Virus record (IMG/VR): IMGVR_UViG_3300018065_000012
DNA from: a virus
Lineage: Duplodnaviria > Heunggongvirae > Uroviricota > Caudoviricetes
Reading direction: 5' to 3' (one strand)
Length of the DNA: 64,000 nucleotides
Position numbers and translations under genes: made by a program. Below the pieces are notes generated by a model that worked only from the letters and a program-made list of their open reading frames with translations, was not told the DNA's origin and ran no database searches. This document shows, in pieces, positions 11,859-62,778 of the stretch (its first letter is position 1; every line of letters begins with the position of its first letter).

Positions 11859-11859
11859 A

Positions 11860-16820: not shown

Positions 16821-16842
16821 TTGCTTCTCGGGTTGTATAATA
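16821..16842 (+). promoter_or_regulatory. promoter-like motif TTGCTTCTCGGGTTGTATAATA (site A of GGTTGTATAATA family)
   Basis: Intergenic; TATAAT at 16836-16841; recurs at 23313, 31691, 34431, 59774. Confidence 0.5.
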
Positions 16843-23312: not shown

Positions 23313-23325
23313 GGTTGTATAATAA
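23313..23325 (+). promoter_or_regulatory. promoter-like motif GGTTGTATAATAA (site C) only 5 nt from the ATG of 23329
   Basis: Same core as 16831, 31699. Confidence 0.4.
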
Positions 23326-27507: not shown

Positions 27508-27530
27508 CCATATAATAATTTTATATTTGC
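27508..27530 (+). promoter_or_regulatory. AT-rich element CCATATAATAATTTTATATTT (late-motif family member)
   Basis: Shares TTTTATATTT core with 39071, 49135, 55766, 59586, 62758. Confidence 0.4.
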
Positions 27531-27568: not shown

Positions 27569-28327
27569 ATGAAAACGAAAGTATCGTTGGATACGCTTCA
27601 GGCGTTGTCCTACAATCCACGCCTAATCACCGATATAGAATTGGAACGTCTGAAGGCGTCGATAAAAGAACATACCAAGGCTATTCCCAAGAAGACAAGA
27701 GGCGAAGGTTACCGGCTGACTACCACTGTTACGGTCAACGTCAATGGGAATCGTATTGTTGGCGGACACCAACGAATAAAAGCGTTGAAGTCGTTAGGAC
27801 AGGATTGGATTCACGTCAAAGATATAACTTGGGTAGACGTTAAACCGGATAGCTCTAAAGAAAAGTCTTTGAACATAACGCTCAATAGTGAACGCTATGG
27901 AGGTTTTTGGAATCAGCCAAAGCTTGATGAACTTTTGCGGGGAATCAAAATTGACGATGAAGCGTTATATGAGAAACTTGATTTGCCGTATATTGAACTT
28001 GAAAAAGTAAACGTAGATGTAGCAGAAATGTTGCCGCAGAAGGAACCCGAGAAATCTGGAAAGGACGAGCCAGAGGGGAAACCAGAATTCAACTTAGAAC
28101 CCATTTTTGAAGATGGTCCTGCTTTGGAAGAGCCATTGGAAGAGACAGATGGTAAAGCCGTTGTTCCGTCGGATATGCCGCAACTTTACCCTCTGTCGTA
28201 TGCGGTGACGGCAGAACAACGGCAAAAAATTTTAGCCGCCATCAAAAAGGCGAAAGAAACATATAGTGCGAAAACGAGTGCTGATGCGCTCACGATTGTT
28301 TGCGAACGCTTTAACGATGCGCCTTAA
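27569..28327 (+). CDS. ParB/Srx-like N-terminal domain protein (GGHQR motif), paralog 1
   Basis: VNVNGNRIVGGHQRIKALKSLGQDWIHV; acidic C-terminus. Confidence 0.5.
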   Translation: MKTKVSLDTLQALSYNPRLITDIELERLKASIKEHTKAIPKKTRGEGYRLTTTVTVNVNGNRIVGGHQRIKALKSLGQDWIHVKDITWVDVKPDSSKEKSLNITLNSERYGGFWNQPKLDELLRGIKIDDEALYEKLDLPYIELEKVNVDVAEMLPQKEPEKSGKDEPEGKPEFNLEPIFEDGPALEEPLEETDGKAVVPSDMPQLYPLSYAVTAEQRQKILAAIKKAKETYSAKTSADALTIVCERFNDAP

Positions 28328-28338
28328 CGGAGGAAATT

Positions 28339-29031
28339 ATGAGCACAAAAAAGATTGGCTTGACATCACTCAACGTTGTTGATTACAACCCAAGGATAAT
28401 TGGGAGTGAAGAACTGGAAAACTTAAAAGCTTCAATCAAGGAACACACTGATACCATTCCAGAAGATGAACGTGGTGAGGGCTTTCGATTGACGTCAACG
28501 ATCACCGTGAACAGACAAGGGAATCGTATTATTGGCGGGCACCAACGCATAAAGGCTCTTAAAAATTTGGGTCAGGACTGGATTCATCCTGACGACATCA
28601 CATGGGTTGAGGTTGAACCAAACTCGGCTAAAGAAAAAGCTTTGAACGTAAGCTTAAACAACGACAAAGCCGCTGGGTCGTGGGATAGAACAAAGCTTGA
28701 TGCTATATTGAAGTCTATCAAAGTTGATATGCCGGTCATTTCTGAAAATCTCGGGTTTGACGAAATCCAATTGGAAATGCCTCAAATTGATTCGGGCGAA
28801 ATATCTCAAATTCCAACTACAGAATTGTCAGGAGACTCTTCTGGATCGTCCGACGATGAAAAAGTACAAGGCCCACCTAAACTTGATATTCAAGGCGTTG
28901 ACGACAGAGCAGGACGTTTTTTGCTTACCTACACAACTGATGAAGAGAAAAGCTTTTGGATGAAGCGGTTGGGTATCAAAGGCGATAAGGTCGTCTATGT
29001 TCCTTCAGATGTTGACGAAGTTAACAGGTGA
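28339..29031 (+). CDS. ParB/Srx-like N-terminal domain protein, paralog 2
   Basis: VNRQGNRIIGGHQRIKALKNLGQDWIHP ~60% identical to paralog 1. Confidence 0.5.
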   Translation: MSTKKIGLTSLNVVDYNPRIIGSEELENLKASIKEHTDTIPEDERGEGFRLTSTITVNRQGNRIIGGHQRIKALKNLGQDWIHPDDITWVEVEPNSAKEKALNVSLNNDKAAGSWDRTKLDAILKSIKVDMPVISENLGFDEIQLEMPQIDSGEISQIPTTELSGDSSGSSDDEKVQGPPKLDIQGVDDRAGRFLLTYTTDEEKSFWMKRLGIKGDKVVYVPSDVDEVNR

Positions 29032-29034
29032 TCC

Positions 29035-29805
29035 ATGTATGAAACAAAAAGCGGGAAGAAAGTTTCTATTGTAATCCCATCTAAAGAACGAGCGGAAGCT
29101 GGGACAACTTGGAATTTGTTCCCAGACGCAACGGTATTTGTTCATGAACGCGAATTGGAGGAATACAAAAAGCATTTACCAAATGCAAAAATTGAGACTC
29201 ATACTGAAGATGGCGGGCTTACGCCAATCAGAAATATTATCATGCGAAAGATAAGTATGGGTGATTGGGTAATCCAACTTGATGACGATATAAAGGTCGT
29301 TGGATATTTTACAGCAGATGGTGACAAAAAGAAAAAGGTCAAATGGTCGTCAAAGCAACACATGAACGAATGGTTTAACGCTATTGATCTTGCAGAGAAA
29401 AGTGGATTTTATCTCATTGGAGAATCTCCAACGGCCAATGAATTTTACTATCGTCCAGAGCGTCCGCATTCGATTAACACGTTTGTTGAAGGTCATTGCA
29501 TGATTATCAAGCGTTGCGAATTGATGTTTGATGAAAAATGCAGGGTAAAACAGGATTATGATTATACGCTTCAATGTGCAGTCAGCGGACGTCGGGTTTT
29601 ACGTTTAGATTATCTTTGGTCTGACTACACCTATCGCAAGGCAGCAGGCGGTTGTATGGATACGTGGAAGAAATCCGGATTGGAAGAAGAAGTGTATAAT
29701 TACATGATGAATAAATGGAAAGGTCTTCTTATCCCAAAAAGAAATCGCGCAAGTTCTCCATATGAATTTACGATGAGGGTGCCGAAAGAATGGTCCAACC
29801 AATGA
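29035..29805 (+). CDS. GT-A fold glycosyltransferase-like protein
   Basis: N-terminal KVSIVIPSKERAE and DxD-like QLDDDI. Confidence 0.4.
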   Translation: MYETKSGKKVSIVIPSKERAEAGTTWNLFPDATVFVHERELEEYKKHLPNAKIETHTEDGGLTPIRNIIMRKISMGDWVIQLDDDIKVVGYFTADGDKKKKVKWSSKQHMNEWFNAIDLAEKSGFYLIGESPTANEFYYRPERPHSINTFVEGHCMIIKRCELMFDEKCRVKQDYDYTLQCAVSGRRVLRLDYLWSDYTYRKAAGGCMDTWKKSGLEEEVYNYMMNKWKGLLIPKRNRASSPYEFTMRVPKEWSNQ

Positions 29806-30398
29806 ATTCTGTTTTAGTCATTGCGCCCCATCCTGACGATGCAGAATTAGGTTGCGGGGCAACTATTTCCAAATTAATACGGAATGGCTGTAAGGTATCA
29901 ATATTAACATTGACTGATCGGAGCGAATTTGATATTGAACCAGAAGTTCAAGCGGCTGCAAAAGAACTTGGTTTGGAAGAGAATATAAAGCTTTTGAATT
30001 TTCCTCATCGCGATCTTTGGTCGTCAAGAGCTGGTATCTTGCGCACGTTTGAACGTGCTCGTGATACATTGGATTTAGATGTCGTTTTTACGCCAGCGCC
30101 AGACGACTTACATCAAGACCATCAAGTAAGTTTGGAAGAAGCAAAGCGTGCTTTCAAAGGGACAACGCTTTGGGGTTATGAAATTTTGAGAAGTAATTTC
30201 TCTTTTGCAGCGGATGTGTTTGTTGAGGTAGAGAAGGAAGATGTTGAAAGGAAAGTAAAAGCCATAAAACATTATCATACGCAAGCAAACAAATTGTACT
30301 GTCGCGCAGAAGCGATTTTTGGGCTTGCGCGTGTAAGAGGAGCAATGTGTGGGGCGGTGTTAGCAGAAGGTTTCAAGAATATTTGGCAAGTGCTATAA
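29802..30398 (+). CDS. PIG-L / LmbE family N-acetylglucosaminyl deacetylase
   Basis: VLVIAPHPDDAELGCG (AHPDDE motif). Confidence 0.7.
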   Translation: MNSVLVIAPHPDDAELGCGATISKLIRNGCKVSILTLTDRSEFDIEPEVQAAAKELGLEENIKLLNFPHRDLWSSRAGILRTFERARDTLDLDVVFTPAPDDLHQDHQVSLEEAKRAFKGTTLWGYEILRSNFSFAADVFVEVEKEDVERKVKAIKHYHTQANKLYCRAEAIFGLARVRGAMCGAVLAEGFKNIWQVL

Positions 30399-30407
30399 GG
30401 ACGCGTT

Positions 30408-31658
30408 ATGGATTATTATCAAGCACCAAGGTGGACGTCAGAAATTGCCGATTGCTCGATGCCGATGACGTTTGATCAATATTCAAATTGTTCATATGGC
30501 TGTTTATATTGCTTCAGTACGTTTCAGCGAGCCGTTGGAGACGGGAAAGAAAATTACTTAGCAAAAAGGGTCAAGCCTGTTAAGATTGAAAGCGTAGTTA
30601 AACATTTCTGCGATCCAGAAAAATCTCAATTTGGGCCATTTATTAGAATGGGTAAGACAATGCAATGGGGTTCGTTGTCTGATCCGTTTTGTAATTTTGA
30701 AAAGAAGTATGGCGTTGGATTAGAGTTGTTACGGTTTTTCAAGGCAATAAACTATCCATTGTGCCTTAGCACAAAGGGCGTTTGGTGGCTCGATGATCCT
30801 CGCTATACGGAACTATTCAAAGGTCAAAAGAATTGGAACGTAAAAGTCAGCATCATCATGACAAATGAAGATTTTGTAAAGAAAATTGAGCCGGGAGTTC
30901 CTACGACAAAAGAAAGACTTAAAGCCCTTGAAAAGATTACTGCTTTGAATTGCGGTGGCGCGACTTTGCGATTGCGACCTTTCATTATTGGGATTACGAA
31001 TCACAACAATGGTCATATTGAACTTATCAAAGAATCTGGCAAACGTGGCGCTGGGGCCGTGTCTACAGAATTTTTTTGTTGTGAAAGGCGTTCAATGATT
31101 TTGCGCGAACGTCTAAAAATAATGAGTGAGTGCGCTGGCTTTGATGTTTGGAAATACTATGTAAAGAATTCATACAATCAGGGCTATATGCGTTTGAACA
31201 GAAACACAAAGCGACCTTATGTCGATGAAATGCAAAAGGCGGCACGCGAAGCAGGAATGCGCTTTTATGTAAGTGATGCTCATTTCAAAGAGCGTTGCGA
31301 TAATGGTTCTTGTTGTGGACTGCCTGCTGATTGGCCCGGAAGTTATTCCAAAGGACAATGGTGCGAAGCGTTGATGATTGCAAAGAAACGTGGCTATGTT
31401 ACGTGGGATGATATTGATCCTCACTTGGCTTATGCAGATACGTTCCTTTGGCGTTTGAATATTGGAATGAATCGCGGCTCGGCGGAAAAAGCAGCATCAT
31501 TTGTGAATCATACTTGCAAGGATTATATGCGTTGGTTGTGGAATAATCCAAATGCAGGACAAAGCCCTTACTATATGTACGAAGGAATCTTAAAACCAAG
31601 ACCAGACGCAGATGCGAATGGAAATCTGATCTACGATTACGACTCATCAAAGGCTTGA
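30408..31658 (+). CDS. radical SAM enzyme, SplB / DNA-photolyase-like (COG1533-like)
   Basis: CSYGCLYC = CxxxCxxC; N-terminal context like spore photoproduct lyase family. Confidence 0.6.
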   Translation: MDYYQAPRWTSEIADCSMPMTFDQYSNCSYGCLYCFSTFQRAVGDGKENYLAKRVKPVKIESVVKHFCDPEKSQFGPFIRMGKTMQWGSLSDPFCNFEKKYGVGLELLRFFKAINYPLCLSTKGVWWLDDPRYTELFKGQKNWNVKVSIIMTNEDFVKKIEPGVPTTKERLKALEKITALNCGGATLRLRPFIIGITNHNNGHIELIKESGKRGAGAVSTEFFCCERRSMILRERLKIMSECAGFDVWKYYVKNSYNQGYMRLNRNTKRPYVDEMQKAAREAGMRFYVSDAHFKERCDNGSCCGLPADWPGSYSKGQWCEALMIAKKRGYVTWDDIDPHLAYADTFLWRLNIGMNRGSAEKAASFVNHTCKDYMRWLWNNPNAGQSPYYMYEGILKPRPDADANGNLIYDYDSSKA

Positions 31659-31681: not shown

Positions 31682-31710
31682 TTGAAAAAATATCTCTGGG
31701 TTGTATAATA
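31682..31710 (+). promoter_or_regulatory. sigma70-like promoter TTGAAA-16nt-TATAAT containing GGTTGTATAATA (site B)
   Basis: Intergenic 31659..31878. Confidence 0.55.
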
Positions 31711-34421: not shown

Positions 34422-34442
34422 TTGCTTCTTCGATTGTATAAT
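34422..34442 (+). promoter_or_regulatory. promoter-like motif TTGCTTCTTCGATTGTATAAT (site D)
   Basis: Nearly identical architecture to 16821..16842. Confidence 0.5.
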
Positions 34443-37914: not shown

Positions 37915-38544
37915 ATGGCTAAACGTCAATGGTATTGTTTTCTCCTTGACGGGCAAAAAACCCGTGGCTTGGAAGACCTTGAGTCTTTTTTGTTCAAGGA
38001 AATGGGGCGGGTGTTTGCAGATGATTTTTGCGATTTGATACTTCCCGGCGAACGGATGGCTGATGATTGTTTCAAGATTCAATCGGAAAGCTATTTTTTT
38101 GTCAAGTGTTCCAATTATCAAAACCATACAGATGAAATCAAAAACAGTTCTGTAGTTTCTATTGTTTTGCCTTCCGTAGAGAATCCTTCTCCAGTTGCGT
38201 ATTCTTCAATTTCGCGTTTTGAGCGGACTACAAAGTGGAGAATCAAAAGCAAAGATGATGTCTCCATAGGAGATTTGGTTCGAGTCAAAGCAGGGTTTTT
38301 GAAAAACCTGTTTGGGATTGTGGTAAAGAAGAATGGGAAAAACAGTTACAATGTTTTCTTTCGTCTTTATACGCGGCAATTTGTAGAAAGTTTGCGGCAA
38401 GTAAATTTAGAAATTTGCGATTGCCTTTGGAATTATGTTCAATTCCCAGTTGTGGAAAAAGGGAAAAAATTGACAGAAAACATGATTTCAACTGCAATTG
38501 ATATTGGAGATAGGAGAAAAATCTGTGCGAATAAAATACGTTAG
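37915..38544 (+). CDS. KOW-domain protein (NusG/Spt5-like; putative transcription antitermination/elongation factor)
   Basis: IGDLVRVKAGFLKNLFGIVVKKNGKNSYNVFF resembles KOW. Confidence 0.4.
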   Translation: MAKRQWYCFLLDGQKTRGLEDLESFLFKEMGRVFADDFCDLILPGERMADDCFKIQSESYFFVKCSNYQNHTDEIKNSSVVSIVLPSVENPSPVAYSSISRFERTTKWRIKSKDDVSIGDLVRVKAGFLKNLFGIVVKKNGKNSYNVFFRLYTRQFVESLRQVNLEICDCLWNYVQFPVVEKGKKLTENMISTAIDIGDRRKICANKIR

Positions 38545-39073
38545 CGACTACATTGAGCAACCGAGAAAGGTTCGTTCAAGCAGAAGTTTTCATTTTGACA
38601 TCGATGAAATTACAAGTAATCGCTCGATTTTTAATCTTTTGAACGATAAAGACAGGGACATTTTGTATCTCATTTTCGTTTCAAAAAAGAAGCAGAAGGA
38701 AGTACAGAGAGTCCTAAAGCGAAGTCAACCATCGCTTTGCTATGATATACGTCGTATCAGAGAACGGATTCAATTCATCGCATATTTGAGACAAGCCTTC
38801 GATATTTTCACAAACTTCATTGAGCAAAGAAATCGCAAGTATGATCCTCAAACAATAGAAATTCTTGTTTTGATGTATTACACCACTTCCTTTACCTTGA
38901 CCGCAAGGGTTCTTGGTCTGTCGCAAATCTTTGTAAGAGGCTTATTTGACAAAGCATTGCGACGAATGAGAAGGCTGAAACACTGGGAAGCATACGAGAT
39001 TTTTTCCGCAGTTCGACGTAACAAGAACAAGGTCAAGCGTGTCTACAAAGATCACACGGTCTGGAAATCGTAA
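38525..39073 (+). CDS. protein with two sigma-70 region-4-like HTH repeats; putative late-gene transcriptional activator
   Basis: DRDILYLIFVSKKKQKEVQRVLKRSQPSLCYDIRRIRERI and IEILVLMYYTTSFTLTARVLGLSQIFVRGLFDKALRRMRR. Confidence 0.45.
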   Translation: MRIKYVSDYIEQPRKVRSSRSFHFDIDEITSNRSIFNLLNDKDRDILYLIFVSKKKQKEVQRVLKRSQPSLCYDIRRIRERIQFIAYLRQAFDIFTNFIEQRNRKYDPQTIEILVLMYYTTSFTLTARVLGLSQIFVRGLFDKALRRMRRLKHWEAYEIFSAVRRNKNKVKRVYKDHTVWKS

Positions 39074-39090
39074 AAATTTTTTTATATTTT
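39071..39090 (+). promoter_or_regulatory. late-promoter-like element TAAAAATTTTTTTATATTTT
   Basis: Immediately downstream of the sigma-R4-like gene, upstream of head module. Confidence 0.45.
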
Positions 39091-41302: not shown

Positions 41303-43117
41303 ATGGCCCGTTATAAGAAGCGTAAAAACGCTAATATTTTCGATAGCCTGACTGATGAATTCCTTTCTGGCAACACAACTGACGTCGTTGATATAATAAC
41401 GTTTGTTGAATCCCCGTGGGGGTTGAATTTTCGTTTATATCCGGCTCAGCGTTTTGTCTTGAAAGCTTATTATGGTGTTCCATTGGACGATAAGAACCGG
41501 ATCATTGAAGTTCCAGACACCATCAACGACAAAATCCTTTTTACTTTTACCGAAACAGAGTTCTTGAATTTTCTTTATGAAGAAGGAATGTGCAATACTA
41601 ACACGGTTGCTGGAAAGAAATTTACAGAACTGATTTTGGTAGTTGGAAGACGCGGTGGAAAGTCTTCATTGGCTTCTTGCATTTCTTGCTATGAACTTTA
41701 CAAGCTTGTAAAACGGGGCGACCCGTCTATTTATTATGACTTCCCATCTGGGACAAATATTTGCGTTACCAACGTTGCGCCAACGGATGATCAAGCCGGA
41801 ATCGTTTTTGACATGGTTCAAAAGCAGGCTTTGAATTGTCCGTTCTTGAGAGACCGTTCAGTTAACCAGACGTTGACGTATTTCAATCTTCAAACAGACG
41901 CAGACAAGTCAGGCTTTTCAAAACGGAAACATGCAAGTCTAACTTGTCTGGCGGGTGGATGTTCGTCAAATAGTTTGCGCGGTAGAAACAACATTGTAAT
42001 CATCATGGATGAAATGGCGTTCTTTATTGACAACCAAGGACGCTTTTCAGGCAGTGAAGTTTATAAAGCTTTGAAGCCGTCGACAGCTTCTTTCAAAGGC
42101 GATGGCAAAGTGGTCTGTATCAGTTCTCCTTACGCAAAGTACGGTGCATTTTGGGATTTGTATAACGATAGCGTGCACGACCCCGTTCACACTATTATGT
42201 TCCAAATGTACAGCGCGATGATGAACCCAACGGTTGATTCGTCTTTGCTTAGGGCAGAGCGCAAACGAGACAAGATTGGATTCACCACAGAATATGAAGC
42301 AAAATTCAGCGACAAAGTGACATCATGGGTCGAGGATGAAGACCAGTACAGAGCTTGTGTGGTTCCCGGAAAAGTACGTCCAGAAAAAGGCGAAACAGGC
42401 GTTAGCTACTTCATGGGTATTGACCTTGGATTGAAGAATGATGGAACTGGAATTGCTATTGCTCATAAGGATGTAAAAAGCAAAAAGATTGTTGTTGACT
42501 GGGCCAATGTTTGGTATTCAAAATCATCAGATGTTTGGGAAGTTGAAAAGACAATTTATAAAGATTGCCGCCGGTTTGCAAATGTAGACATTATTCCAGT
42601 AGCTAAAATCGTAGAAGAAGTTGTCCGGCTCAATCGATGGTTTCCAATCAAGAGTGGATGGTTTGACCAGCACGAAGGGTTTGGATTACTTGAACAGCTT
42701 CACAATGCTGGGTTGAAACAGTTCTACATGAAGCAGGTGACTGATCAATTGAATGATCAGATTTATGAGCTTTGGAAAAGCTTGTACATCGATGGTCTTT
42801 TTGAAGTTTACGATGACGACCTTATGACCAGTGAAGTTTTGTTTTTGGAAGCAGAACGAAAGTCCAAAAAGAAAATTCAAGTACGTGCTCCAAACAAACG
42901 CGGAGCACATGATGATATTTCAGATGCAGTTTCCCGTGCTATTTGGGAAGCGTACAGTGCTTTCAAACAGCAAGGTAATAATATTGTGCTTGGTCGAACA
43001 ACAAACATCTCAGCTGTGCAAACGTCAACAATGAATCGTTTTCGTATGGGCAGAGAAAAAGTACATGGTACTGTTACTACGCGGAAAATTCCTAAAGTTA
43101 GGACGCGATATCGTTGA
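41303..43117 (+). CDS. terL: terminase large subunit
   Basis: Walker A VGRRGGKSS; Walker B IVIIMDEMA; nuclease-domain GIDLGLKNDGTGIAIA. Confidence 0.85.
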   Translation: MARYKKRKNANIFDSLTDEFLSGNTTDVVDIITFVESPWGLNFRLYPAQRFVLKAYYGVPLDDKNRIIEVPDTINDKILFTFTETEFLNFLYEEGMCNTNTVAGKKFTELILVVGRRGGKSSLASCISCYELYKLVKRGDPSIYYDFPSGTNICVTNVAPTDDQAGIVFDMVQKQALNCPFLRDRSVNQTLTYFNLQTDADKSGFSKRKHASLTCLAGGCSSNSLRGRNNIVIIMDEMAFFIDNQGRFSGSEVYKALKPSTASFKGDGKVVCISSPYAKYGAFWDLYNDSVHDPVHTIMFQMYSAMMNPTVDSSLLRAERKRDKIGFTTEYEAKFSDKVTSWVEDEDQYRACVVPGKVRPEKGETGVSYFMGIDLGLKNDGTGIAIAHKDVKSKKIVVDWANVWYSKSSDVWEVEKTIYKDCRRFANVDIIPVAKIVEEVVRLNRWFPIKSGWFDQHEGFGLLEQLHNAGLKQFYMKQVTDQLNDQIYELWKSLYIDGLFEVYDDDLMTSEVLFLEAERKSKKKIQVRAPNKRGAHDDISDAVSRAIWEAYSAFKQQGNNIVLGRTTNISAVQTSTMNRFRMGREKVHGTVTTRKIPKVRTRYR

Positions 43118-43650: not shown

Positions 43651-43685
43651 TCTGCATGAAAATATAGAATCTCTTGGAGACAATT

Positions 43686-45638
43686 ATGGCAAAGAAAAAA
43701 GCATCGACAAAAAAGAAAGCAACGCGTAAACGGACGGCGAGTAAAACTAAAGACGCTGTGAGATTTGGTTTGCCTTCTCCCGGTCTTAGTAAAGGCCCAG
43801 TGGACAAGGCAAAAGCCAGAGCCGTTGCGAGAATGGAAAAGAAAGCCCGTGTTGCGAAAATTGCAACAAGCGCAATGGCTGGACGTGGACGCGAAGCCGG
43901 AATGATGATGGATACGACATCCATGTCAGGCGGCATTTGGGGCAGCTTGTCGTTGGATGCCTATCATACGAGTTACGCAAGCGGCAACACAATGTATGGT
44001 GGTGGAGTACGAGATATCCCAACGTATTTCATCATGATGAATCAGCAGAACGGCGGTGTACTGTATTGGCCCGTAAGCTTGCGCGAGAAGTATGAGTGGT
44101 ACAGATATTTTGCAAGAACAGATGCATACGTTGGCCGTGCTTTGGAATTGCTCTCCGACTTGCCGATGAGCAAGCTTTCTTTGACCGTTCCAAAGCTCAA
44201 AGACCCAAATTTGAGAGAAGAGATTCATTCTTTTTATACCTATATGTGCGAACGCATTAACTTGTTCCAAAGGCTTCAAGAAATCCTTTGGGAATACAAC
44301 ATGATTGGTAATGTGTTTGCGTTTCACGAATGGGATGAAAAACGCGACATGTGGAGCAAGATTGTTTTGCTTCCGCCAGAAGAAATCAATTGTTTCACAT
44401 ATCCATTCAGCGATAATGCGCGTATTGAATATCGTCCTGAAAAGCTAATGGAGATTATCAAGAAGTCCAGAGAAATGCCAGAGGCTCTTGAGGGCAACGA
44501 ATTCTTAAAACAGATTATGGAGCACATTCCTGAAGATGTAGTTGATATGGTCACCAATCAAGATTGTATCGTAATGGATAGCGACCCTTATGCTGGCGGA
44601 GAGGTCGGGTCCTTCACTAATCATTTTGCGCGACGCAAAAGTCCTTATATGGACTTGGGAGCATCGGTGCTGGAGCGTGTATTGGTTCCAATGCTCCAGA
44701 AAGAGAATTACCGCTATACGCAACTTGCTTTGGCAACGCGCAACATGACGCCGAAAAATAAGATCAGTGCGCCCAATTTGAATAATGACGAGATCAATGA
44801 ACTGCGCGAACAAATTGACTTGTCTTACATGGACCCCGATTATAGCGTTGTAACTAACTATGATTGGGAGTGGGAAATGATGGGGGCAGAATCGCGGCTG
44901 CTTGATTTGTCTGGCGAATATGAAAACATCGAGAATCAAGTGTTTGCTGGGCTGGGCGTAACGCGAGAACTTTTGACGGGCGAGGGAACTTACAGCGGCA
45001 ACCGGATTACAGTTGAAATTTTGAATACGGTTTTCATGCTTGTCCGCGAAACGCTTCAAGAGTACGTCGAGAAGCAATTGTTCAAACCTGTTGCCGATAA
45101 GAAGGGATGGTATTCAGAAGACAAAAATGGAATTCGGAAATATTGGTATCCGCGTTTGAGTTTCAATCGTCTCAGCATTCGGGACAATCAGGAAGTCTTT
45201 GAGAATCTGTTTCAGTTGTATCAAAAGGGTTCGTTGCCGATTGAGGTATTGTTTGAACTTTACAATTTGGACAGCGATACGATCAATGATCAGATTAAAC
45301 GGGAACTGTTTACCGTTAAAGACCCGACGTTCAATCGGACGATTGAGAACGTTAATGATGAAGTTGGACGTCAGCTTGCTGAGCGTTCTGACATTGTTGA
45401 AAAGGTTGGAAAGTATCTTGGACTCAAAGTTAAACCGCCGCAGGAAGAAGGCGCGGGTGGAATGGGTGGCGAAGCGTTTGGTGAAGAGTTTGGCGCTGGC
45501 GGAGAAGGTTCAGAAGAGGATCAAATCGTCGAAGAGACGGCTGACGCTGTTGCTGAAGAAATGCCAGCAGATTCAACCGAGGAAGAAGTCAAGGAAGTCG
45601 TTAGTGACCTTAGCTTAGCTGCGAGTGAGAAAAAATGA
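43686..45638 (+). CDS. portal protein
   Basis: 650-aa protein directly after terL; basic N-terminus, acidic C-tail. Confidence 0.6.
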   Translation: MAKKKASTKKKATRKRTASKTKDAVRFGLPSPGLSKGPVDKAKARAVARMEKKARVAKIATSAMAGRGREAGMMMDTTSMSGGIWGSLSLDAYHTSYASGNTMYGGGVRDIPTYFIMMNQQNGGVLYWPVSLREKYEWYRYFARTDAYVGRALELLSDLPMSKLSLTVPKLKDPNLREEIHSFYTYMCERINLFQRLQEILWEYNMIGNVFAFHEWDEKRDMWSKIVLLPPEEINCFTYPFSDNARIEYRPEKLMEIIKKSREMPEALEGNEFLKQIMEHIPEDVVDMVTNQDCIVMDSDPYAGGEVGSFTNHFARRKSPYMDLGASVLERVLVPMLQKENYRYTQLALATRNMTPKNKISAPNLNNDEINELREQIDLSYMDPDYSVVTNYDWEWEMMGAESRLLDLSGEYENIENQVFAGLGVTRELLTGEGTYSGNRITVEILNTVFMLVRETLQEYVEKQLFKPVADKKGWYSEDKNGIRKYWYPRLSFNRLSIRDNQEVFENLFQLYQKGSLPIEVLFELYNLDSDTINDQIKRELFTVKDPTFNRTIENVNDEVGRQLAERSDIVEKVGKYLGLKVKPPQEEGAGGMGGEAFGEEFGAGGEGSEEDQIVEETADAVAEEMPADSTEEEVKEVVSDLSLAASEKK

Positions 45639-49134: not shown

Positions 49135-49157
49135 TGCAATAATTCTTTTATATTTTT
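49135..49157 (+). promoter_or_regulatory. late-promoter-like element TGCAATAATTCTTTTATATTTTT
   Basis: Intergenic, upstream of 49201. Confidence 0.45.
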
Positions 49158-54737: not shown

Positions 54738-55307
54738 ATGAAGTTGGATACGTTGAAGGGCGTCGTTAAGGTTGACAAAAGAATAAACGATAAGCAACAC
54801 AAACGAATGATTGAAGTTTTGTGGCGTAATCCAGAAATCTTGAGGCGCGCATTATCGCTTCCTTTTATATGGATAAGAACAATGGAGTACGTATTTGATC
54901 CGGCCACTCAAGAAAAAATAGACCTTGTCTTCCAAGATAAGTATAATGAGTATCGAGCTGAACCAGATACTGTTTGCTTTGTTGTTGAGCTGAAGAGCGA
55001 CACGGCTGATCATGAAGTCATTGGGCAATTGAAAAAAGCCGTTCAAACGATGCAAAAAAAAGGCAAAAAAATTGGGCATTGGCATAAGACGGTTGGAATT
55101 TCTATTGCGAAGGGATATACAAATTCTGGTTTGAAGTTGTTATGGGAGGAAGGTTATCGGGCTTTTCAGTGGATTGATTCTGGGAAAGAAGTACGTTTGA
55201 AGGAATTAAGCGATCCAACTATCATACCTAAAAAACAACCAGAAACAAGCACGTTGAGCAAGTCGCTTCTTCAGCGGCTGAAGGCGGTGTCAAAAAATAC
55301 GGATTAA
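54738..55307 (+). CDS. hypothetical protein with possible PD-(D/E)xK nuclease core (IDLVF...VVELKSD)
   Basis: D...E.K spacing. Confidence 0.4.
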   Translation: MKLDTLKGVVKVDKRINDKQHKRMIEVLWRNPEILRRALSLPFIWIRTMEYVFDPATQEKIDLVFQDKYNEYRAEPDTVCFVVELKSDTADHEVIGQLKKAVQTMQKKGKKIGHWHKTVGISIAKGYTNSGLKLLWEEGYRAFQWIDSGKEVRLKELSDPTIIPKKQPETSTLSKSLLQRLKAVSKNTD

Positions 55308-55660
55308 CGTCTTGCCAAGATATTTTTGATTGCTTCGTCAAGTAGTGCAGGAATATAGATTCCAGTCAGGTAATAAATTTCAGGAATCAAACTCAAATCT
55401 CGGATAAAGTGAATCCCATTTTCCCAATTCGCAATACGCTGCCAATTGTATTTTTCAGTATCAGTTGCTGTTTGTGTAAGTTTCTTTTTCTTTTTTAGTT
55501 TCAGGAAACGAGCCAGCTCTGTACGTTTTAAGCCTTTTTTGATGCGTGCTTTTTTGAGCAATTTTCCAAATTCTTTTTTGATTGTTGATGAACGAATTTT
55601 GACATGTAACGACTCATCATTCTTCGGGCCAACGATTGACACTTTCAGTTTCTTTGACAT
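55304..55660 (-). CDS. XRE-family helix-turn-helix protein (only minus-strand gene)
   Basis: LKKARIKKGLKRTELARFL ... QRIANWENG matches HTH_XRE pattern; ggaga SD. Confidence 0.5.
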   Translation of the reverse strand: MSKKLKVSIVGPKNDESLHVKIRSSTIKKEFGKLLKKARIKKGLKRTELARFLKLKKKKKLTQTATDTEKYNWQRIANWENGIHFIRDLSLIPEIYYLTGIYIPALLDEAIKNILARR

Positions 55661-55765
55661 TTTTTGTATCTCCAAACTATCAGTGTAATTTATATGGAAA
55701 ACATATTGTTTTGTCCTTAAAACATTATACCACTGAGCGTTAAGTTTTTGTTAAAAAAACAAGAA

Positions 55766-55785
55766 CTTTTTTATATTTTATTTTA
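55766..55785 (+). promoter_or_regulatory. late-promoter-like element ACTTTTTTATATTTTATTTT in divergent intergenic region
   Basis: Upstream of acidic protein/scaffold operon. Confidence 0.45.
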
Positions 55786-56649: not shown

Positions 56650-57864
56650 ATGGAAAAAAGGATTCGGCTTACTGATCCACGGCACCCGCGCAATCGCGCT
56701 GCGGCTAAGGCGGAACCTTATCCGGGCATGGTTGGACAACCTGATCGTAAGTTCCAACCAGACGACAAGTACGAAAATTACGTCGAAGTTCCCGGTTGGG
56801 AAACGCAAGAGTTGCCCACGGACATTGACGACAAGCGCGACGAGATTGGTTTTCCGGTAATGAAGAAAGCTACAGTCGCGAAGGTCCGTAGCGCTGCTCA
56901 AAAAGCGGTCCGTGCTGCTATTCTATTCCTTGGCGACAAATCACCGGAAAGCGTTGTTGAAGCGCAAGCCCGTGATTTTATGCGCCTTGGGAACAAAGGG
57001 CTTGATTTGGCTCTGAGTCGTTATCAAGAAACGGCGAAGTTCTATGCTCAGAAGGAAGAGGACGACACCGTTGCGGATGACGATTTCATTGAGAAGAAAA
57101 AGGAAGAGTCAGAAGCAAAGTCTCCAGAAGAAGCAAAAAAGAACATCGAAAACAGCAATATGCCTGAAGCTTTGAAAGAACAGGCGCTCAAGAAGGTTGA
57201 TGAAGAAGGCAAAAAGAAGAAAAAAGCTCTTCAACTGATTGCTGAAGCCAATGCTCTTCTCTCGGAAGATGAAGAGGCTCAGGACGAAGAGGAAGAAGCT
57301 TGCACGAAAAAGTCAGAAGATGAAGAAGTAAAAGAGGAAGCTCAGGACGAAGAGGAAGAAGCTTGCACAAAAAAGTCAGATGATAATCAAGATGAAGAGT
57401 CTGACGAGGACAAAGATATAGGAGCAAAGAAATCAGAGGACGAAGAAGTAAAAGAAGAAGTTCAGGAAGAAGAGACTGAGAAGAAAAAGTCAGATGATGA
57501 TGACGATGATGACGACGATAAAGAAGAAGTGGTTGTGGAAGAAACTGTTGAGGCAAAGAAGAGCGGCGATGCTGAGCTGGACATTGAGATGAGCGCAGCC
57601 GATGAGGGTTTGGAAGAAAGCCCGTCCGAAGACAAGCTGCTTGCTTCGCTTTACGAGGCTCAGGAAGAGGAACCTGAGAAAAAGGAAGAGGCTCAGGAAG
57701 AAGAGAAAGAAGAAGCACAAGATGAAGAAGAGCCAGAGAAGAAAAAGAAGGCTGGAGTCAAAAAGCTTGGCGGTCAGCCCAGAGTTGCTTCTTCTGGAAA
57801 TCCTCTCGATCTTTCGAGTTTGTGGAACAGTGCGCCTGATATCAATGAACTGTGGGATAAGTAA
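56650..57864 (+). CDS. scaffolding protein candidate (acidic, tandem repeats)
   Basis: Position upstream of decoration and MCP; repeats EDEEVKEEAQDEEEEACTKKS. Confidence 0.55.
   Translation: MEKRIRLTDPRHPRNRAAAKAEPYPGMVGQPDRKFQPDDKYENYVEVPGWETQELPTDIDDKRDEIGFPVMKKATVAKVRSAAQKAVRAAILFLGDKSPESVVEAQARDFMRLGNKGLDLALSRYQETAKFYAQKEEDDTVADDDFIEKKKEESEAKSPEEAKKNIENSNMPEALKEQALKKVDEEGKKKKKALQLIAEANALLSEDEEAQDEEEEACTKKSEDEEVKEEAQDEEEEACTKKSDDNQDEESDEDKDIGAKKSEDEEVKEEVQEEETEKKKSDDDDDDDDDKEEVVVEETVEAKKSGDAELDIEMSAADEGLEESPSEDKLLASLYEAQEEEPEKKEEAQEEEKEEAQDEEEPEKKKKAGVKKLGGQPRVASSGNPLDLSSLWNSAPDINELWDK
57277..57392 (+). repeat. tandem ~63-nt coding repeat x2 (plus a degenerate third copy near 57430)
   Basis: gctcaggacgaagaggaagaagcttgcac... 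Confidence 0.6.
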
Positions 57865-58433: not shown

Positions 58434-58644
58434 ACGCATGACGCGGAACACGCTATGTTCCCCAGCGTGTAATAAATCGGGGTTTAGATAAGGGTGTTGC
58501 GAAGTAAGGAGAGATTTGATTGTTCCCAATCGCTCATTCAATGCAGAACAACATCCTTGAGTGGTCTACAAGGCCGCTCAAAAAAGAACGTTGGAAGCTT
58601 ACGGTCAGCGTTGACCACTTCCATTTTGATAAAGGAGAATGAAC

Positions 58645-59508
58645 ATGGCCCAGTTGGACAATCAGACCAAGCAGGAAATCATCAGTCAGTACATCAAGAC
58701 TGCCGCTGGTCGCCAACGCTTGGCCGCGTCCATGATTCAACCCCTCCGCCGTCGTAGGGATTACTCGTCTGTTGGCCGCAAGGCTTTCTATGTCGAGCAA
58801 CTTCCCGATGGTGCGCTTCCTCTTTACGACAAAGATCCAAATATCACGGCCTACGTCGTTGGAGAAGAGGGGGAGAACATTGTCGCAGTCGCCAAGCCAA
58901 AGCGCGTGATGTTCCCGCTGTTCGAGATTGCTTCGAACCCTGAAATCCAGCTGACCGAGATCAAGCAGCGTCGTTTCGATCTGATCGAGCGTTCTCTTGA
59001 CCTCGCGAAAGCGGAAATTCAGGCCGAAGAAGACCGTAAGGTTTTCGCAGTGATGAACGCACTTTCGGCAGACCCCACCAACCCCAACCCCGCTATCCCC
59101 GTCACGGGCAACCTGACGGCCAATGCGCTTGCAGATGCTTTTGCAAATATTGAGCGTACGGATATGCGCGTGGCCAACGTGTTCTTGAATGCTAAGGACT
59201 ACGCTGACCTCCGCAAGTGGGATCGGGACACCTTGGACATCGAAACTCAGGCCGTCTTGCTCAAGACTGGTCTGATGGCGACGGTCTGGGGTGCAAAACT
59301 CATCGTCAGTCGTATCGTGCCGGAAGGCACCGTTTACGTCTGTGGTGAGCCTGAGTTCTTCGGTAGAATCCCCGTCCGTACCGAACTCACCGTGCTGTCC
59401 GCTGATGATCCGAAAAACCGTCTTATTGGTTTCTCGGTGTTCGAGAACATCGGCATTGGTGCGTACAACCCGTACGCATTGCAGGTGCTCACCATCACGC
59501 GTACGTAA
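58645..59508 (+). CDS. major capsid protein candidate
   Basis: aaggag SD 7 nt upstream; GC-rich codon usage; followed by strong terminator. Confidence 0.5.
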   Translation: MAQLDNQTKQEIISQYIKTAAGRQRLAASMIQPLRRRRDYSSVGRKAFYVEQLPDGALPLYDKDPNITAYVVGEEGENIVAVAKPKRVMFPLFEIASNPEIQLTEIKQRRFDLIERSLDLAKAEIQAEEDRKVFAVMNALSADPTNPNPAIPVTGNLTANALADAFANIERTDMRVANVFLNAKDYADLRKWDRDTLDIETQAVLLKTGLMATVWGAKLIVSRIVPEGTVYVCGEPEFFGRIPVRTELTVLSADDPKNRLIGFSVFENIGIGAYNPYALQVLTITRT

Positions 59509-59545
59509 AAGCGCAGTGTAGTTGTGGGACAACCAACCCAAGTAG

Positions 59546-59580
59546 AAAAAGCCTCGGCTTTGCCGAGGCTTTTTTCTTTT
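59546..59580. terminator. bidirectional rho-independent terminator (A-tract, 8-bp GC stem gcctcggc/gccgaggc, T-tract)
   Basis: Seen directly. Confidence 0.85.
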
Positions 59581-59604: not shown

Positions 59605-59773
59605 CGTTCATTAAGTAGGAGCATTGTCCTTGGCGATATCATCGGAGAAAACGAAAGCAGGCCATCGGATAGTGATCGTCATTTGCTGCGATTTTTGATC
59701 AATGCTTTATGAACGTTAGAATGGCCCATAGATGGGCTTTATGAATTTTTTATTTTTCCATCAAAACTTTGTC

Positions 59774-59790
59774 TTGACGGGACTATAATA
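59774..59790 (+). promoter_or_regulatory. promoter-like motif TTGACGGGACTATAATA (site E)
   Basis: Relative of GGTTGTATAATA family, ~350 nt upstream of nrdD. Confidence 0.4.
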
Positions 59791-60138
59791 AATTATGAGC
59801 GCATGCTTCAACAGTTGGCGGATGCAAGTTGTCACTTCCTGTCCGGTAAATAACAAACAACAAACCAAGAAAACAAACCAAAACCGAGACAGATTTTTCA
59901 ATACAACAAGCATTGTTCCACTGTTCTTGCTTGGCGAAAAGTAATCTTGAAAAAGTTTGCGCTGGTAACTCTACGCATTGCGTTGGGTTACAAAAGCGGT
60001 TTGGAAAAACTTTCGCTCGAAGACGCATAATTCTTTTATAGTCGCCAATCTGATGAGTCCAAACTTTTGGCGAAGGCAATCAGATGATATTGAACACGCC
60101 AATTCACACCTGCAAATCATACGAGAAGGAGGAAGTTT

Positions 60139-62151
60139 ATGTCGCCGCACGAGAAGCGCAAAGGTTGGCATATCAGGCAATCTTTTTCAGACGACTTTGT
60201 GGACTTGATGCACAAGTTGGAGAAAAAGTACGGCGACAAGATTTTTGCAATCCAAGGTATCGCGAACGATCACCTCGATCTGGTGCAGTTCAGCAGAAGT
60301 TTCTTTGCAAAGTCGGCCAGTAACGTAGCAGATGTAAGCGTTGACGGCAACGCCAACGTTACTGAAAAGAACATCATGCAATATAACTATGAAGCGGGAA
60401 AGGCTCTTATGAAACTTAATAGCCTTTACCTTCTTTACAAATGGGTCAAAAAATTCTGGAAAAGAGAAGTAGCAGCCGAAGCATTGGAAAAGGTCGTCAA
60501 CGGCGAGTTGTTCGTTAACGACCTTGTTCATTTCGGGATGCCGTATTGCTATGCCTTTGATCTCCGGAGCCTTCTGACTGAAGGGATGAATTTTTACAAA
60601 GGCAATATGCCGATCAATCCGCCAAAACGCAGTGACTCTTTCTTTGCCTTGCTTATCCAGACGACGGCGTATATCAGCAACCAGATTCTTGGAGCGGCTT
60701 CATATCCTGATTTTTTTGTCGTTTTGGATTGGTTCTATCGCAAGGAAATGGGCGAGGATTATTCTGACCAGTTGAATGATAAGACAATATGGAAAAGAAT
60801 CAAAAACCAATTCCAAAATCTTGTCTTCAGTTTCAACTTTCCCTTTCGCGGAAATCAAAGTGCCTTCACCAATTTGTCGGTGATGGACGAGGGTTTTTTG
60901 CAGCAACTTTTTGGCAAAGGAGCTTACACCTATCCAGATGGTACTGATCCCAAACTGGAAAGTGTTTTGAAATTATCGAAAAAGTTCTTTGAGTACTATG
61001 CTGAAATCAACGGCAAGGAAGGAATCTTTACATTCCCCGTTATGACATTGGCAATCAGTATTGACAAAGATACTGGAAAATATATTGATCCAGAATTTGT
61101 AGATTGGGCGGCAAAAGCAAATTGCAGTAAAGCGATGGCAAACATTTTCCAGAGTGTTCCAAATTCGTTTTCAAGCTGTTGCCGGTTAAAAAGTGAATTT
61201 CAGATTGACGAAGTGGGTGCAGATGGTTATCAAAACAGTTTTGGCGTTGGTGGTCTTTCGATTGGAAGTCATCGCGTTGCAGGTTTGAATCTTCCGCGTA
61301 TTGCGATTTTGGAGAAAGAGAACCCAAATATCCTTGAAGAAGACATTGAGTTGTTGCATAAAATCCTTTTGGCGCATCGGCGTTTAATCCAGCATCATAT
61401 TGACAACAAAGCGCTCCCGCTATATGAGACGGGCTGGATTCATTTGAAAAAGCAGTACAGTACGATTGGGTTTGTTGGCGGATATGAATATGTTGTCAAC
61501 AAGGGCTTGAATATTAAGTCTGATGAAGGTATAAAAGCCTTGACTGATGTCTTGACTTTTGTTGAATCGAAAATTGGCCATTGGCAACGGGAAGAGAAAG
61601 AGGACGGGAACATTTACAATATTGAGCAAATCCCTGCTGAGTCCATGGCGGTGAGGCTTGCGAAAATTGATCATATTTCTGGGCACAACCCGAAAAATTT
61701 CAAGCTTTACTCCAACCAGTATATTCCATTGATTGAAGATGCGAGTATTTACGACAGGTTTCGGATTCAGGGTAATATCGATGCGTTGACTTCCGGCGGT
61801 GCGATTTTGCACTTGAATATTGACGATGAAAAACCGCTGAGCGCAAAGCAATTTCGCAAAGTAATCGAACATGCGAAAAATTCTGGCACTGTTTATTTTG
61901 CTGTGAATTATGCTTACAGTGAATGCGAGAAAAAACACTATGTTGTCGGAAAGCGTAAGAAATGCCCCGTTTGTAAAGCAAAGATTACTCAGCAATATAC
62001 CCGTGTTGTTGGTTTTGTGACGCCGGTGAGAAGCTGGAATTCCGTTCGGCGTGATTATGAATATGAAAATCGAGTGTTTTACTCGAATGAAAACGCAGTC
62101 AATGGAACGTCAAAGAAGAAAATCCTCAAACCTCAACCAGCGAGTGTATGA
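60139..62151 (+). CDS. nrdD: anaerobic ribonucleoside-triphosphate reductase, class III
   Basis: aaggagga SD; C-terminal CPVCKAK zinc ribbon and glycyl-radical-like TRVVGFV. Confidence 0.8.
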   Translation: MSPHEKRKGWHIRQSFSDDFVDLMHKLEKKYGDKIFAIQGIANDHLDLVQFSRSFFAKSASNVADVSVDGNANVTEKNIMQYNYEAGKALMKLNSLYLLYKWVKKFWKREVAAEALEKVVNGELFVNDLVHFGMPYCYAFDLRSLLTEGMNFYKGNMPINPPKRSDSFFALLIQTTAYISNQILGAASYPDFFVVLDWFYRKEMGEDYSDQLNDKTIWKRIKNQFQNLVFSFNFPFRGNQSAFTNLSVMDEGFLQQLFGKGAYTYPDGTDPKLESVLKLSKKFFEYYAEINGKEGIFTFPVMTLAISIDKDTGKYIDPEFVDWAAKANCSKAMANIFQSVPNSFSSCCRLKSEFQIDEVGADGYQNSFGVGGLSIGSHRVAGLNLPRIAILEKENPNILEEDIELLHKILLAHRRLIQHHIDNKALPLYETGWIHLKKQYSTIGFVGGYEYVVNKGLNIKSDEGIKALTDVLTFVESKIGHWQREEKEDGNIYNIEQIPAESMAVRLAKIDHISGHNPKNFKLYSNQYIPLIEDASIYDRFRIQGNIDALTSGGAILHLNIDDEKPLSAKQFRKVIEHAKNSGTVYFAVNYAYSECEKKHYVVGKRKKCPVCKAKITQQYTRVVGFVTPVRSWNSVRRDYEYENRVFYSNENAVNGTSKKKILKPQPASV

Positions 62152-62152
62152 T

Positions 62153-62755
62153 ATGCAAATTGCAAGTTTTGTTCGCGATTCGTTTCAAGAGTTTGAAGAT
62201 CATCATTCTCTGGTCCTATTCTGTAAAGGCTGCAATTTTTCCTGCCCAGAATGCTACAACTTGAAAAGTCTCGAACAACCGCCTATCGGGACAGCGGTAA
62301 ACATTATCAAAGCGGAAATAACGCCCATGCACGACGCTGTGGTTTTTCTTGGAGGCGAACCTACCATATGGAGCAATGGCTTGCTAAAAGCCGCCGTTTT
62401 TGCCAAGAGAAGCATGGATTTGAGCGTCAAAGTTTTTACGAATGGATTCCAACCAGACGTGGTTGAAAGGTTGATTGCTGCCGAAGTTGTAGACGCTTTT
62501 AGTGTCGATTTTAAGTGCCTTGAAGCAGTAAAGGAAGTCATTGGAGTCGATATTTCAGCAGAAAAATACATTTCCACAGTCACTGACACAATCAACATAA
62601 TTCGTGATTCAAACATCCCAATTGAACTGCGTACAACTTCATTTAAGTCGGTGCGTAATATGGACTTACTCAAATCTCATGTTGGAAATACTTTTCCAAA
62701 TGTGCGTCATATCATTCAAGAAGATTTCTCTCCGATGCTTGAGAATGTCCTGTAG
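62153..62755 (+). CDS. nrdG: anaerobic RNR activating protein (radical SAM)
   Basis: CKGCNFSCPEC (CxxxCxxC) near N-terminus. Confidence 0.75.
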   Translation: MQIASFVRDSFQEFEDHHSLVLFCKGCNFSCPECYNLKSLEQPPIGTAVNIIKAEITPMHDAVVFLGGEPTIWSNGLLKAAVFAKRSMDLSVKVFTNGFQPDVVERLIAAEVVDAFSVDFKCLEAVKEVIGVDISAEKYISTVTDTINIIRDSNIPIELRTTSFKSVRNMDLLKSHVGNTFPNVRHIIQEDFSPMLENVL

Positions 62756-62757
62756 AA

Positions 62758-62778
62758 TGCATAATTTTTTTATATTTA
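62758..62778 (+). promoter_or_regulatory. late-promoter-like element TGCATAATTTTTTTATATTTA
   Basis: Identical core to 59586. Confidence 0.45.

Follow-up and report, generated by a model that had tools for sequence, protein, structure and literature searches.

What signal heads the packaging and head genes of the phage in IMG/VR record IMGVR_UViG_3300018065_000012 (Caudoviricetes), and which proteins help to read it? The window that we analyzed, a 64,000-nucleotide (nt) stretch of this record, has a gene for a sigma-region-4-like (sigma4-like) protein followed directly by a short AT-rich element that recurs further along, and the initial annotation proposed seven such sites as candidate late promoters, each a single AT-rich box without a -35, as in T4. 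We found that the element is real, being neither an artefact nor an ordinary AT-rich spacer. Judging from sequence and placement, it is very likely a -35-less promoter class that is specific to a single huge-phage clade, and phage factors encoded just upstream of its first copy probably help to read it.

All seven sites are present where they had been placed. The 9-mer TTTTATATT has six plus-strand copies (27519, 39080, 49146, 55769, 59596 and 62768), each intergenic and aimed at plus-strand genes, and a single minus-strand copy at 51636 that is antisense within a gene; a variant with one mismatch to it, TTTTATAGT, lies between genes on the plus strand at 60034. The 9-mer is enriched relative to dinucleotide shuffles, which contained it 1.15 +/- 1.17 times, none of 100 reaching 7. 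Allowing up to three mismatches, the 19-mer of the initial annotation gave five matches, all on the plus strand (0.15 expected), and a 16-mer spanning both halves of the element, ATAATTYTTTTATAKT, gave five at up to one mismatch (0.02 expected). The consensus first proposed, GCATAATTTTTTTATATTT, is exact at 62759 and has one mismatch at 59587, but the site at 39071 reads TAAAAATTTTTTTATATTT, with three mismatches. A weight matrix trained on sites from the wider phage family scored at least 18 bits on the window plus strand at 39083, 49149, 55772, 59599, 60037 and 62771, with 14.9 bits at 27522, and revealed no further copies in the window: the first 27 kb are empty and all copies fall within 27.5-62.8 kb. 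The 9.5 kb past the right window edge, seen in a related locus (L093), contain no plus-strand copy; on the minus strand of that locus, TTTTATATT occurs at 13961 in a gene-free gap of ~600 nt adjoining an HNH gene. The copies, whose two halves we call Box A and Box B, are as follows.

39069..39088, plus strand: motif copy 1, core cgTAAAAATTTTTTTATATT, 28.0 bits, 52 nt to the ATG at 39141
49135..49154, plus strand: motif copy 2, core TGCAATAATTCTTTTATATT, 29.3 bits, 46 nt to the ATG at 49201
55758..55777, plus strand: motif copy 3, Box B only, cttTTTTATATT, 18.7 bits
59585..59604, plus strand: motif copy 4, core TTGCATAATTTTTTTATATT, 30.2 bits
60023..60042, plus strand: motif copy 5, variant acGCATAATTCTTTTATAGT, 21.0 bits, 96 nt to NrdD (60139-62151)
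62757..62776, plus strand: motif copy 6, core ATGCATAATTTTTTTATATT, 26.9 bits, 74 nt to the ATG at 62851
27508..27527, plus strand: motif copy 7, the weakest, CCATATAATAATTTTATATT, 14.9 bits, 41 nt to the ATG at 27569

Alignment of the window copies with copies from relatives revealed a rigid 20-base-pair (bp) core, tGyAATAATTyTTTkATATT, containing two -10-like hexamers whose starts lie exactly 11 bp apart. The upstream hexamer, Box A, reads nATAAT, with nearly invariant positions 2 (A) and 6 (T) and a first position that avoids T; in many relatives it appears as tGt-AATAAT, the G being weakly conserved (0.49 bits), and a TG precedes well under half of the Box A copies and never Box B. The downstream hexamer, Box B, reads kATATT, has an invariant TTT directly 5' and is the most conserved part of the element, with GATATT at about half of the family sites and TATATT or TATAGT in the window phage. 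The boxes are separated by 5 bp, the A of Box B standing 7 nt past the Box A hexamer. Within the window the invariant core is TTTTATATT, or TTTTATAGT at 60034; at 55769 the ATAAT half upstream of this core is missing. On the 3' side of the core come 4-6 pyrimidines and then, at 7-9 nt, a switch to a purine-rich stretch, often TAGR; window copies continue as pyrimidine-rich bases followed by ATT..TAGA/TGAC. TAGR is found at 50% of sites versus 6% at random, with a bimodal spacing of 7-8 or 11-14 nt, and at those sites that have a short leader, a well-spaced GGAGG begins 12-14 nt after Box B. Upstream of Box A we found no information content, and TTGACA-like -35 sequences are not enriched 16-18 bp from either hexamer. 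The initial annotation was thus right about the missing -35 and the promoter-like behaviour, while its single AT-rich box is better described as a two-hexamer 20-bp core with a soft downstream box. We also tried Box A and TAGGGT as a -35/-10 pair and rejected it, since the spacing between Box B and TAGR varies over 6-14 nt and well-spaced GGAGG Shine-Dalgarno sites overlap the box.

The motif heads co-directional operons: packaging/head, the 49201 gene, scaffold-to-major-capsid, post-capsid, NrdDG, the 62851 gene and a DNA-modification module. The neighbouring features that matter here are these.

27569-29805: two ParB-like genes and a TET-associated glycosyltransferase (TAGT, PF20691)
37915-38544, plus strand: NusG-like gene
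38525-39073, plus strand: sigma-region-4 gene
41303-43117: large terminase
43674-45638: portal
55304-55675, minus strand: lysine-rich, Xre-like helix-turn-helix (HTH) gene, the sole clear minus-strand gene, divergent from the putative promoter of the scaffold/capsid operon
56650-57864: acidic scaffold-like protein
58639-59508: major capsid
59545..59580, plus strand: intrinsic terminator with a 12-bp stem, AAAAAGCCTCGGCTTTGCCGAGGCTTTTTT, at the end of the capsid operon and directly 5' of motif copy 4
60139-62151: NrdD (PF13597 at 1.8e-89)
~62152-62755: NrdG-like gene, assigned by eye from its open reading frame (ORF) translation and position, with a Pfam label from the same gene in L093

Copy 1 immediately follows the sigma4-like stop codon, and the gene at 39141 is the first of the packaging/head module; orthologous copies are present in L001-L010, L195 and L197, and five family sites precede orthologs of the 39141 gene. 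The gene behind copy 2 encodes a 412-amino-acid (aa) protein (MRTRRG...) with a zinc-ribbon-like C-terminal region, whose orthologs are preceded by eight family sites. Copy 3 is placed between the minus-strand HTH gene and the scaffold-to-major-capsid operon, which starts at 55908, and the full motif stands before orthologs of the 55908 gene at 22 family sites, ~2.3-3.2 kb upstream of the capsid gene. Copy 4 begins ~10 nt past the T-tract of the capsid-operon terminator, a post-capsid order of terminator and motif that recurs in L022, L048, L056, L057, L059 and L060. The ~430 nt that follow (59605-60030), between the copy at 59596 and the copy at 60034 with NrdD, contain no convincing ORF; we considered this spacer as a conserved RNA and rejected it, as blastn found no conservation in the family loci and folding gave a z-score of -1.0. 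At ~59722-59765, ~130 nt 3' of the copy at 59596, the spacer contains a terminator-like hairpin with a T-run, a possible attenuator. Copy 6 precedes a gene for an 87-aa protein (YRANPTDKQQ...), and orthologous copies, often post-terminator, are found in L106, L119/L130, L133, L149 and L154. The upstream half of copy 7 is a perfect TATAAT that forms part of a canonical TTGATT-16-TATAAT promoter, and the gene at 27569 opens a module with two ParB-like genes, the TAGT glycosyltransferase and a radical-SAM-like gene. This region (27569-31658), with the weakest motif copy at its head, is a likely DNA-hypermodification module. Four sites head morphogenesis operons as the label 'late' implied, but the copies at 27519, 60034 and 62768 belong to DNA modification, NrdD/NrdG and small genes, so that the label is only partly apt.

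The element is conserved among relatives. The terminase led us to nine distinct relatives whose gene order is the same (metallopeptidase-like, HNH-repeat, NusG-like and sigma4-like genes, a spacer, genes for 84-aa, ~400-aa and ~200-aa proteins, terminase, portal), and the sigma4-like protein led to two more with this order. In the spacer after the sigma4-like gene T-ATATT is the sole invariant block, 64% GC genomes included, and the proteins flanking these spacers are 42-65% identical between phages. Among 36 9-mers of the same composition, TTTTATATT is the commonest on the gene strand of 80 capsid loci (855 kb), with 42 occurrences versus 12 on the other strand. The weight matrix found 72 plus-strand and 5 minus-strand sites at 20 bits or more in 917 kb of non-redundant loci, and 55 and 1 at 24 bits or more; because it was trained on gene-strand sites of the same data these scores are partly circular, whereas the strand asymmetry and the positional results are not. 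Sixty-five of the 72 sites lie outside long plus-strand ORFs, compared with 9% of random positions. A Shine-Dalgarno site with a start codon follows within 150 nt in 89% of sites (median 56 nt, minimum 22 nt), and a strong intrinsic terminator stands directly upstream in 7 of 70 (10%, versus 1.1% at random), the copy at 59596 among them. Orthologs of the genes after the window copies at 39080, 49146, 55769 and 62768 follow 40 of 65 family sites, and the motif is kept at orthologous sites across genomes of 40-64% GC. At the orthologous site of L195 (10575-10596, GTCATAATTTTTGAATTTT), whose sigma4-like protein is 55% identical, Box B is GAATTT rather than GATATT, a possible co-variation of factor and motif.

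Scanning all of IMG/VR for the exact 19-mer returned 100 stretches. Those with middle GC come mostly from this clade (~30, against ~6 expected in mid-GC DNA by our own estimate) and the remainder from AT-rich genomes, where chance matches are expected. One further instance, GTAATAATTTTTTGATATT followed by TAAGGTTAGA, occurs once in an unrelated small HK97-type phage (L159 / L193, 9919-9937), upstream of a 123-aa Sigma70_r2-like protein; it may be a chance match or a shared host signal. That protein was rejected as a lead to region 2, its phage being unrelated and its single copy within the estimated chance expectation. A literature search for TTTTATATT as a known phage promoter returned unrelated primers and a C. 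difficile table row only.

Co-orientation, position at operon heads, the short distance to ribosome-binding sites, post-terminator placement and orthologous conservation amid varying flanks together argue that the element is a promoter class. They also bear on whether it could instead be an operator for a repressor or regulator such as the HTH protein at 55304-55675, or a replication or packaging signal. Tandem-HTH and Xre-like HTH proteins are encoded nearby and half-sites 11 bp apart resemble a protein-binding site, but strict co-orientation with the downstream gene, the fixed short distance to a Shine-Dalgarno site and start, and placement after terminators are properties of promoters, no other conserved promoter-like element lies alongside, and a pac/cos or origin role fits poorly with multiple dispersed copies. 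We therefore consider an operator or packaging signal highly improbable.

Host sigma A might be thought to suffice, the sites being ordinary -35-independent promoters that need no phage factor and are conserved through selection for a strong A/T-rich -10. Both hexamers are TATAAT-like, some copies have a plausible -35, and the same 19-mer occurs once on the unrelated small phage contig described above. This explanation seems improbable to us, as the rigid 20-bp core and its fixed 11-bp spacing hold across phages of 40-64% GC with presumably different hosts, there is neither a -35 nor a consistent TGn before Box B, the first 27 kb are without the motif, and the phage has a distinct host-type class in another region of its genome. 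This second, promoter-like class is marked by TTGTATAAT, which occurs four times as an exact plus-strand match, always between genes (16833-16841, 23315-23323, 31701-31709 and 34434-34442), in some cases with GCAAAA or TTGAAA ~15-17 bp upstream. A minus-strand box, TGGTATAAT, lies at 55724-55732 upstream of the HTH gene at 55304-55675, and L006 has the same host-type box before its ortholog of the gene at 36310. The box at 34434 heads the string of genes that ends in the NusG-like and sigma4-like genes, with the first motif copy directly after them, which suggests a cascade from host-type promoters through phage factors to the motif.

A polymerase of the phage's own, single-subunit or multisubunit and encoded outside the window, would account for a long, rigid, phage-specific consensus without a -35, which is typical of such promoters, and only ~20% of the genome is in view. 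Nevertheless, we found neither a polymerase gene nor the beta-prime DFDGD motif in 1.24 Mb of window and family sequence, drawn from incomplete genomes, and sigma4-like and NusG-like factors work with a bacterial-type polymerase. RNA polymerase genes are reportedly missing from the Bacillus phage G group, the closest cultured phages in capsid sequence (PMC7824862). We give this alternative very little weight.

The two genes directly before the first motif site encode the candidate factors, and the pair is kept there in all relatives that we examined. The 182-aa product of 38525-39073, a candidate motif-binding factor, consists of two sigma-region-4-like HTH domains in tandem. We found 247 homologs of similar length, and the protein gave a confident structure model, with a predicted local distance difference test (pLDDT) score of 83. 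Its structural and sequence relatives are single sigma region 4 or LuxR-type HTH domains only; each half separately matches region 4 models and neither half matches region 2 models. A protein of two region-4-like domains in which no region 2 can be detected falls short of a complete sigma, and its reading a -10 box alone cannot be assumed. The initial annotation had called it sigma-R4-like, and the region 4 signature just upstream of the first copy bears this out. The recognition helix of the N-terminal domain, RSQPSLCYDIKRIR, is nearly invariant across the family, paralleling the invariance of the DNA core. In tblastn against 50,697 phage records (E <=0.001) the protein matched only the uncultured LR745208.1 and no cultured phage, a search that does not exclude remote homology to gp34-type proteins. 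The window proteins searched, a part of its ORFs, included none that resembles region 2.

The gene at 37915-38544 (plus strand), which overlaps the start of the sigma4-like gene, encodes a NusG/Spt5-like protein with a KOW motif, GDLVRVKAGFLKNLFGIVVKK, and is a candidate elongation or antitermination factor by its sequence matches. It hit phrog_6386 ('transcription antiterminator') at 4e-9. The KOW match itself is weak (E 0.03), and five of eight orthologs match KOW models at 0.001-0.006. A profile of the eight orthologs had NusG 1m1g as its best PDB match, also weak (E 0.0076). The single-sequence AlphaFold2 model (pLDDT 34) is not interpretable, and a word-based homolog search returned only the protein itself.

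Which of the two hexamers serves as the -10 decides between the readings that remain. The switch from pyrimidines to purines 7-9 nt after Box B favours Box B, and so does its being the most conserved part of the element, kept where Box A is lost (55769, L003 and L004). The GGAGG sites that begin 12-14 nt after Box B in short leaders would then still be transcribed, as the start must lie upstream of them. We consider Box B as the -10 clearly more probable than Box A as an extended -10. The latter belongs to an arrangement like that of lambda PR', in which Box A (tGnAATAAT / TTGCATAAT) would be the extended -10 of host sigma A, transcription would start at the A of kATATT, and Box B, at ~+1 to +6, would pause polymerase near +15-20 (TAGR/GGTG), where the NusG-like protein would join, perhaps loaded by the HTH protein, and confer resistance to terminators. 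Box A does follow ATAAT, with its A2 and T6 nearly invariant and a TG upstream in many copies, and in the window (TTG-CATAAT) it is one base from the phage's host-type box TTG-TATAAT; TTGATT-16 (27519) and TTGAGA-17 (49146) are in register with it, and the A of Box B falls 7 nt past its hexamer. The NusG-like gene lies just 5' of the first copy, as Q does in lambda, inter-operon terminators are common, and the hairpin and T-run ~130 nt 3' of the copy at 59596 are terminator-like. On the other hand, Box B is stricter than Box A, which would be unusual for a pause element relative to its promoter; 55769, L003 and L004 keep Box B without a recognisable Box A, and the Box A hexamer avoids T as its first base. 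The downstream box as an ops-like element (..GGTAGnnTG) found no support, TAGnnTG occurring at only 6 of 72 sites (8%). The likeness to NusG comes from weak scores, and many promoters, rather than one, have less need of processive antitermination. Overall, the PR'-like arrangement is not very likely in our judgment.

With Box B as the -10, we suggest that bacterial RNA polymerase initiates middle/late transcription at the motif, most likely starting ~7-9 nt downstream of Box B at the pyrimidine-to-purine switch. Box A and the T-tract may form the docking site for the tandem-HTH protein, whose two domains, with a short helix between them, could occupy successive major grooves one helical turn apart, a distance that equals the box spacing, and this contact would replace the missing contact between a -35 and sigma region 4. 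The NusG-like protein might then sustain transcription through the long operons, and the host-type TTGTATAAT promoter at 34434 would supply both factors, giving a simple cascade. As a whole, a clade-specific promoter module with Box B as its -10, tandem-HTH docking, NusG-like aid and a cascade is moderately probable; that the promoter depends on the tandem-HTH protein in the way described has a little less than an even chance. A hybrid scheme is unlikely: the tandem region-4 protein on the core would replace the -35 contact and a phage NusG paralog would be loaded during a sigma-dependent pause at the -10-like repeat of every late operon, so that T4-style appropriation would be combined with antitermination of the lambda-Q/RfaH kind without any complete phage sigma.

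Several observations weigh against Box B recognition aided by the tandem-HTH protein. The sigma4-like protein has no region 2, so host sigma A or an unseen phage protein like sigma2 or gp55 must open the DNA, and protein and motif are linked solely by their being adjacent and conserved together. As a canonical -10, Box A (ATAAT, often after a TG) is at least as good a match as Box B, and since a good -35 stands in register with it in the copies at 27519 and 49146, the start could instead lie at Box B. The motif serves non-structural genes too, and the bimodal TAGR spacing fits no simple model. A distant 485-kb relative, LR745208.1, whose sigma4-like protein is 33% identical, lacks the motif in the 50 kb that surround its capsid and sigma-like genes, and other sequence follows the sigma-like gene, which indicates that the motif is specific to the closer clade. 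Our view covers 64 kb, plus 9.5 kb, of a ~338-kb genome.

The phage itself belongs to an uncultivated huge-phage clade, as contig sizes and capsid relatives indicate. The exact sigma4-like product is present on contigs of up to 338 kb and IMG/VR relatives reach 253-265 kb; among named phages, capsid identity is highest to an uncultured 485-kb phage (70%), followed by Tunturiibacter phage Tunturi_5 (49%) and Bacillus phage G (38%). Megablast of 8 kb of the window against the 50,697 phage records gave no match. The window has ~43% GC, with nearly all genes on the plus strand and strong Shine-Dalgarno sites. Further to the left it carries one more recognizable gene:

14939-16441: CCA-adding enzyme / poly(A) polymerase-family gene with an HD domain

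Despite this gene, ARAGORN found no tRNA genes in the window, and an Rfam scan of the window for RNA genes returned nothing. We observed that the major capsid protein (58639-59508) is 70-98% identical across L013-L092, though the terminase is only ~50% identical and GC ranges over 40-64%, an unusually strong conservation. The acidic scaffold-like protein (56650-57864), tried as bait for related loci, gave low-complexity matches only. In several of L004-L012, insertions of ~0.7-1.5 kb, which could be introns, inteins or homing endonucleases, interrupt the terminase and portal genes (for example L006 8734-10001, L004 14399-15540 and L010 9393-11764), and both genes are uninterrupted in the window. 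In L093, the 9.5 kb past the right window edge include a caspase-like Peptidase_C14 gene (11039-11986).

Gene regulation in huge phages from metagenomes is almost entirely uncharacterised, and the motif is a concrete, testable signal in a clade that is widespread (373 IMG/VR loci related by capsid, on contigs of up to ~340 kb). It marks operon boundaries and makes expression classes predictable from sequence alone, and it points to two unusual candidate regulators, the tandem sigma-region-4 protein and the NusG-like protein. If the link between factor and motif is true, it would represent a new way for phages to redirect bacterial RNA polymerase to -35-less promoters, as well as a compact orthogonal promoter/factor pair.

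How does this element compare with known systems? T4 late promoters consist of TATAAATA at -10 and are read by gp55, a sigma2-like protein, with the flap-binding co-activator gp33 and the clamp gp45. Like them, the element is an A/T-rich, phage-specific signal without a -35 that serves structural genes, and recognition may be split among small phage proteins, with the HTH protein possibly gp33-like or of region 4 type. The analogy drawn by the initial annotation holds to this extent, but the type of factor differs and TATAAATA occurs 0 times on either window strand, the conserved core here being TTTkATATT. The element is also a 20-bp, two-hexamer structure, the HTH protein has two domains and is probably DNA-binding, and among the window proteins searched, with ~74 of ~338 kb in view, nothing like the region 2 protein gp55 turned up.

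SPO1 late promoters read CGTTAGA-N17-19-GATATT and use gp34 with gp33 (consensus quoted in PMC3601020). The late -10 hexamer of SPO1 is the same GATATT that forms Box B at about half of the family sites, the window phage having TATATT/TATAGT, and a small phage sigma-like protein is implicated in both systems. In contrast to SPO1, neither CGTTAGA nor another -35 is present at 17-19 bp, the partner box lies 5 bp upstream, and there is no gp34 homolog detectable by tblastn.

An extended -10, TGn-TATAAT, is independent of a -35, and the middle/late promoters of Thermus phage P23-45 are -35-less. The element, too, has no -35, and a TG lies upstream of the ATAAT hexamer in many Box A copies, but its second, more conserved hexamer has no counterpart there and Box B is preceded by TTT. 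RfaH with its ops element, and LoaP, resemble the present case in having a NusG/KOW-like protein beside operons that it possibly serves and a conserved promoter-proximal element, though the NGN/KOW assignment here is weak. Factors of the RfaH type are cellular; it would be unusual for a phage to carry one linked to its late promoters.

In T4 middle promoters a MotA box at -30 accompanies a sigma70 -10 (TAnnnT), and AsiA remodels region 4. The concept is similar, in that region 2 of the host sigma would read a -10-like box and a DNA-binding protein of the phage would stand in for the contact of region 4 with the -35, but the proposed activator site abuts the -10-like box (centre ~-21) instead of lying at -30, and MotA and AsiA homologs were not detected. 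At lambdoid PR', Q acts in the setting of a sigma-dependent promoter-proximal pause at a -10-like repeat. Here too, two -10-like hexamers lie one helical turn apart (11 bp), a regulator gene is directly 5' of the putative late promoter and the packaging/head genes, and there are terminators in the transcribed region. The differences are that no Q homolog was found (the best Foldseek match to Q, at E 0.12, is not significant), that promoter copies are many and that the candidate elongation factor is NusG-like. T4 middle promoters with MotA/AsiA and lambda PR' with Q are the closest mechanistic models for the two -10 readings. Phage-specific -35-less promoters are known as a kind, and what is new is the form that these putative ones take in this clade, together with an unusual pair of candidate factors.

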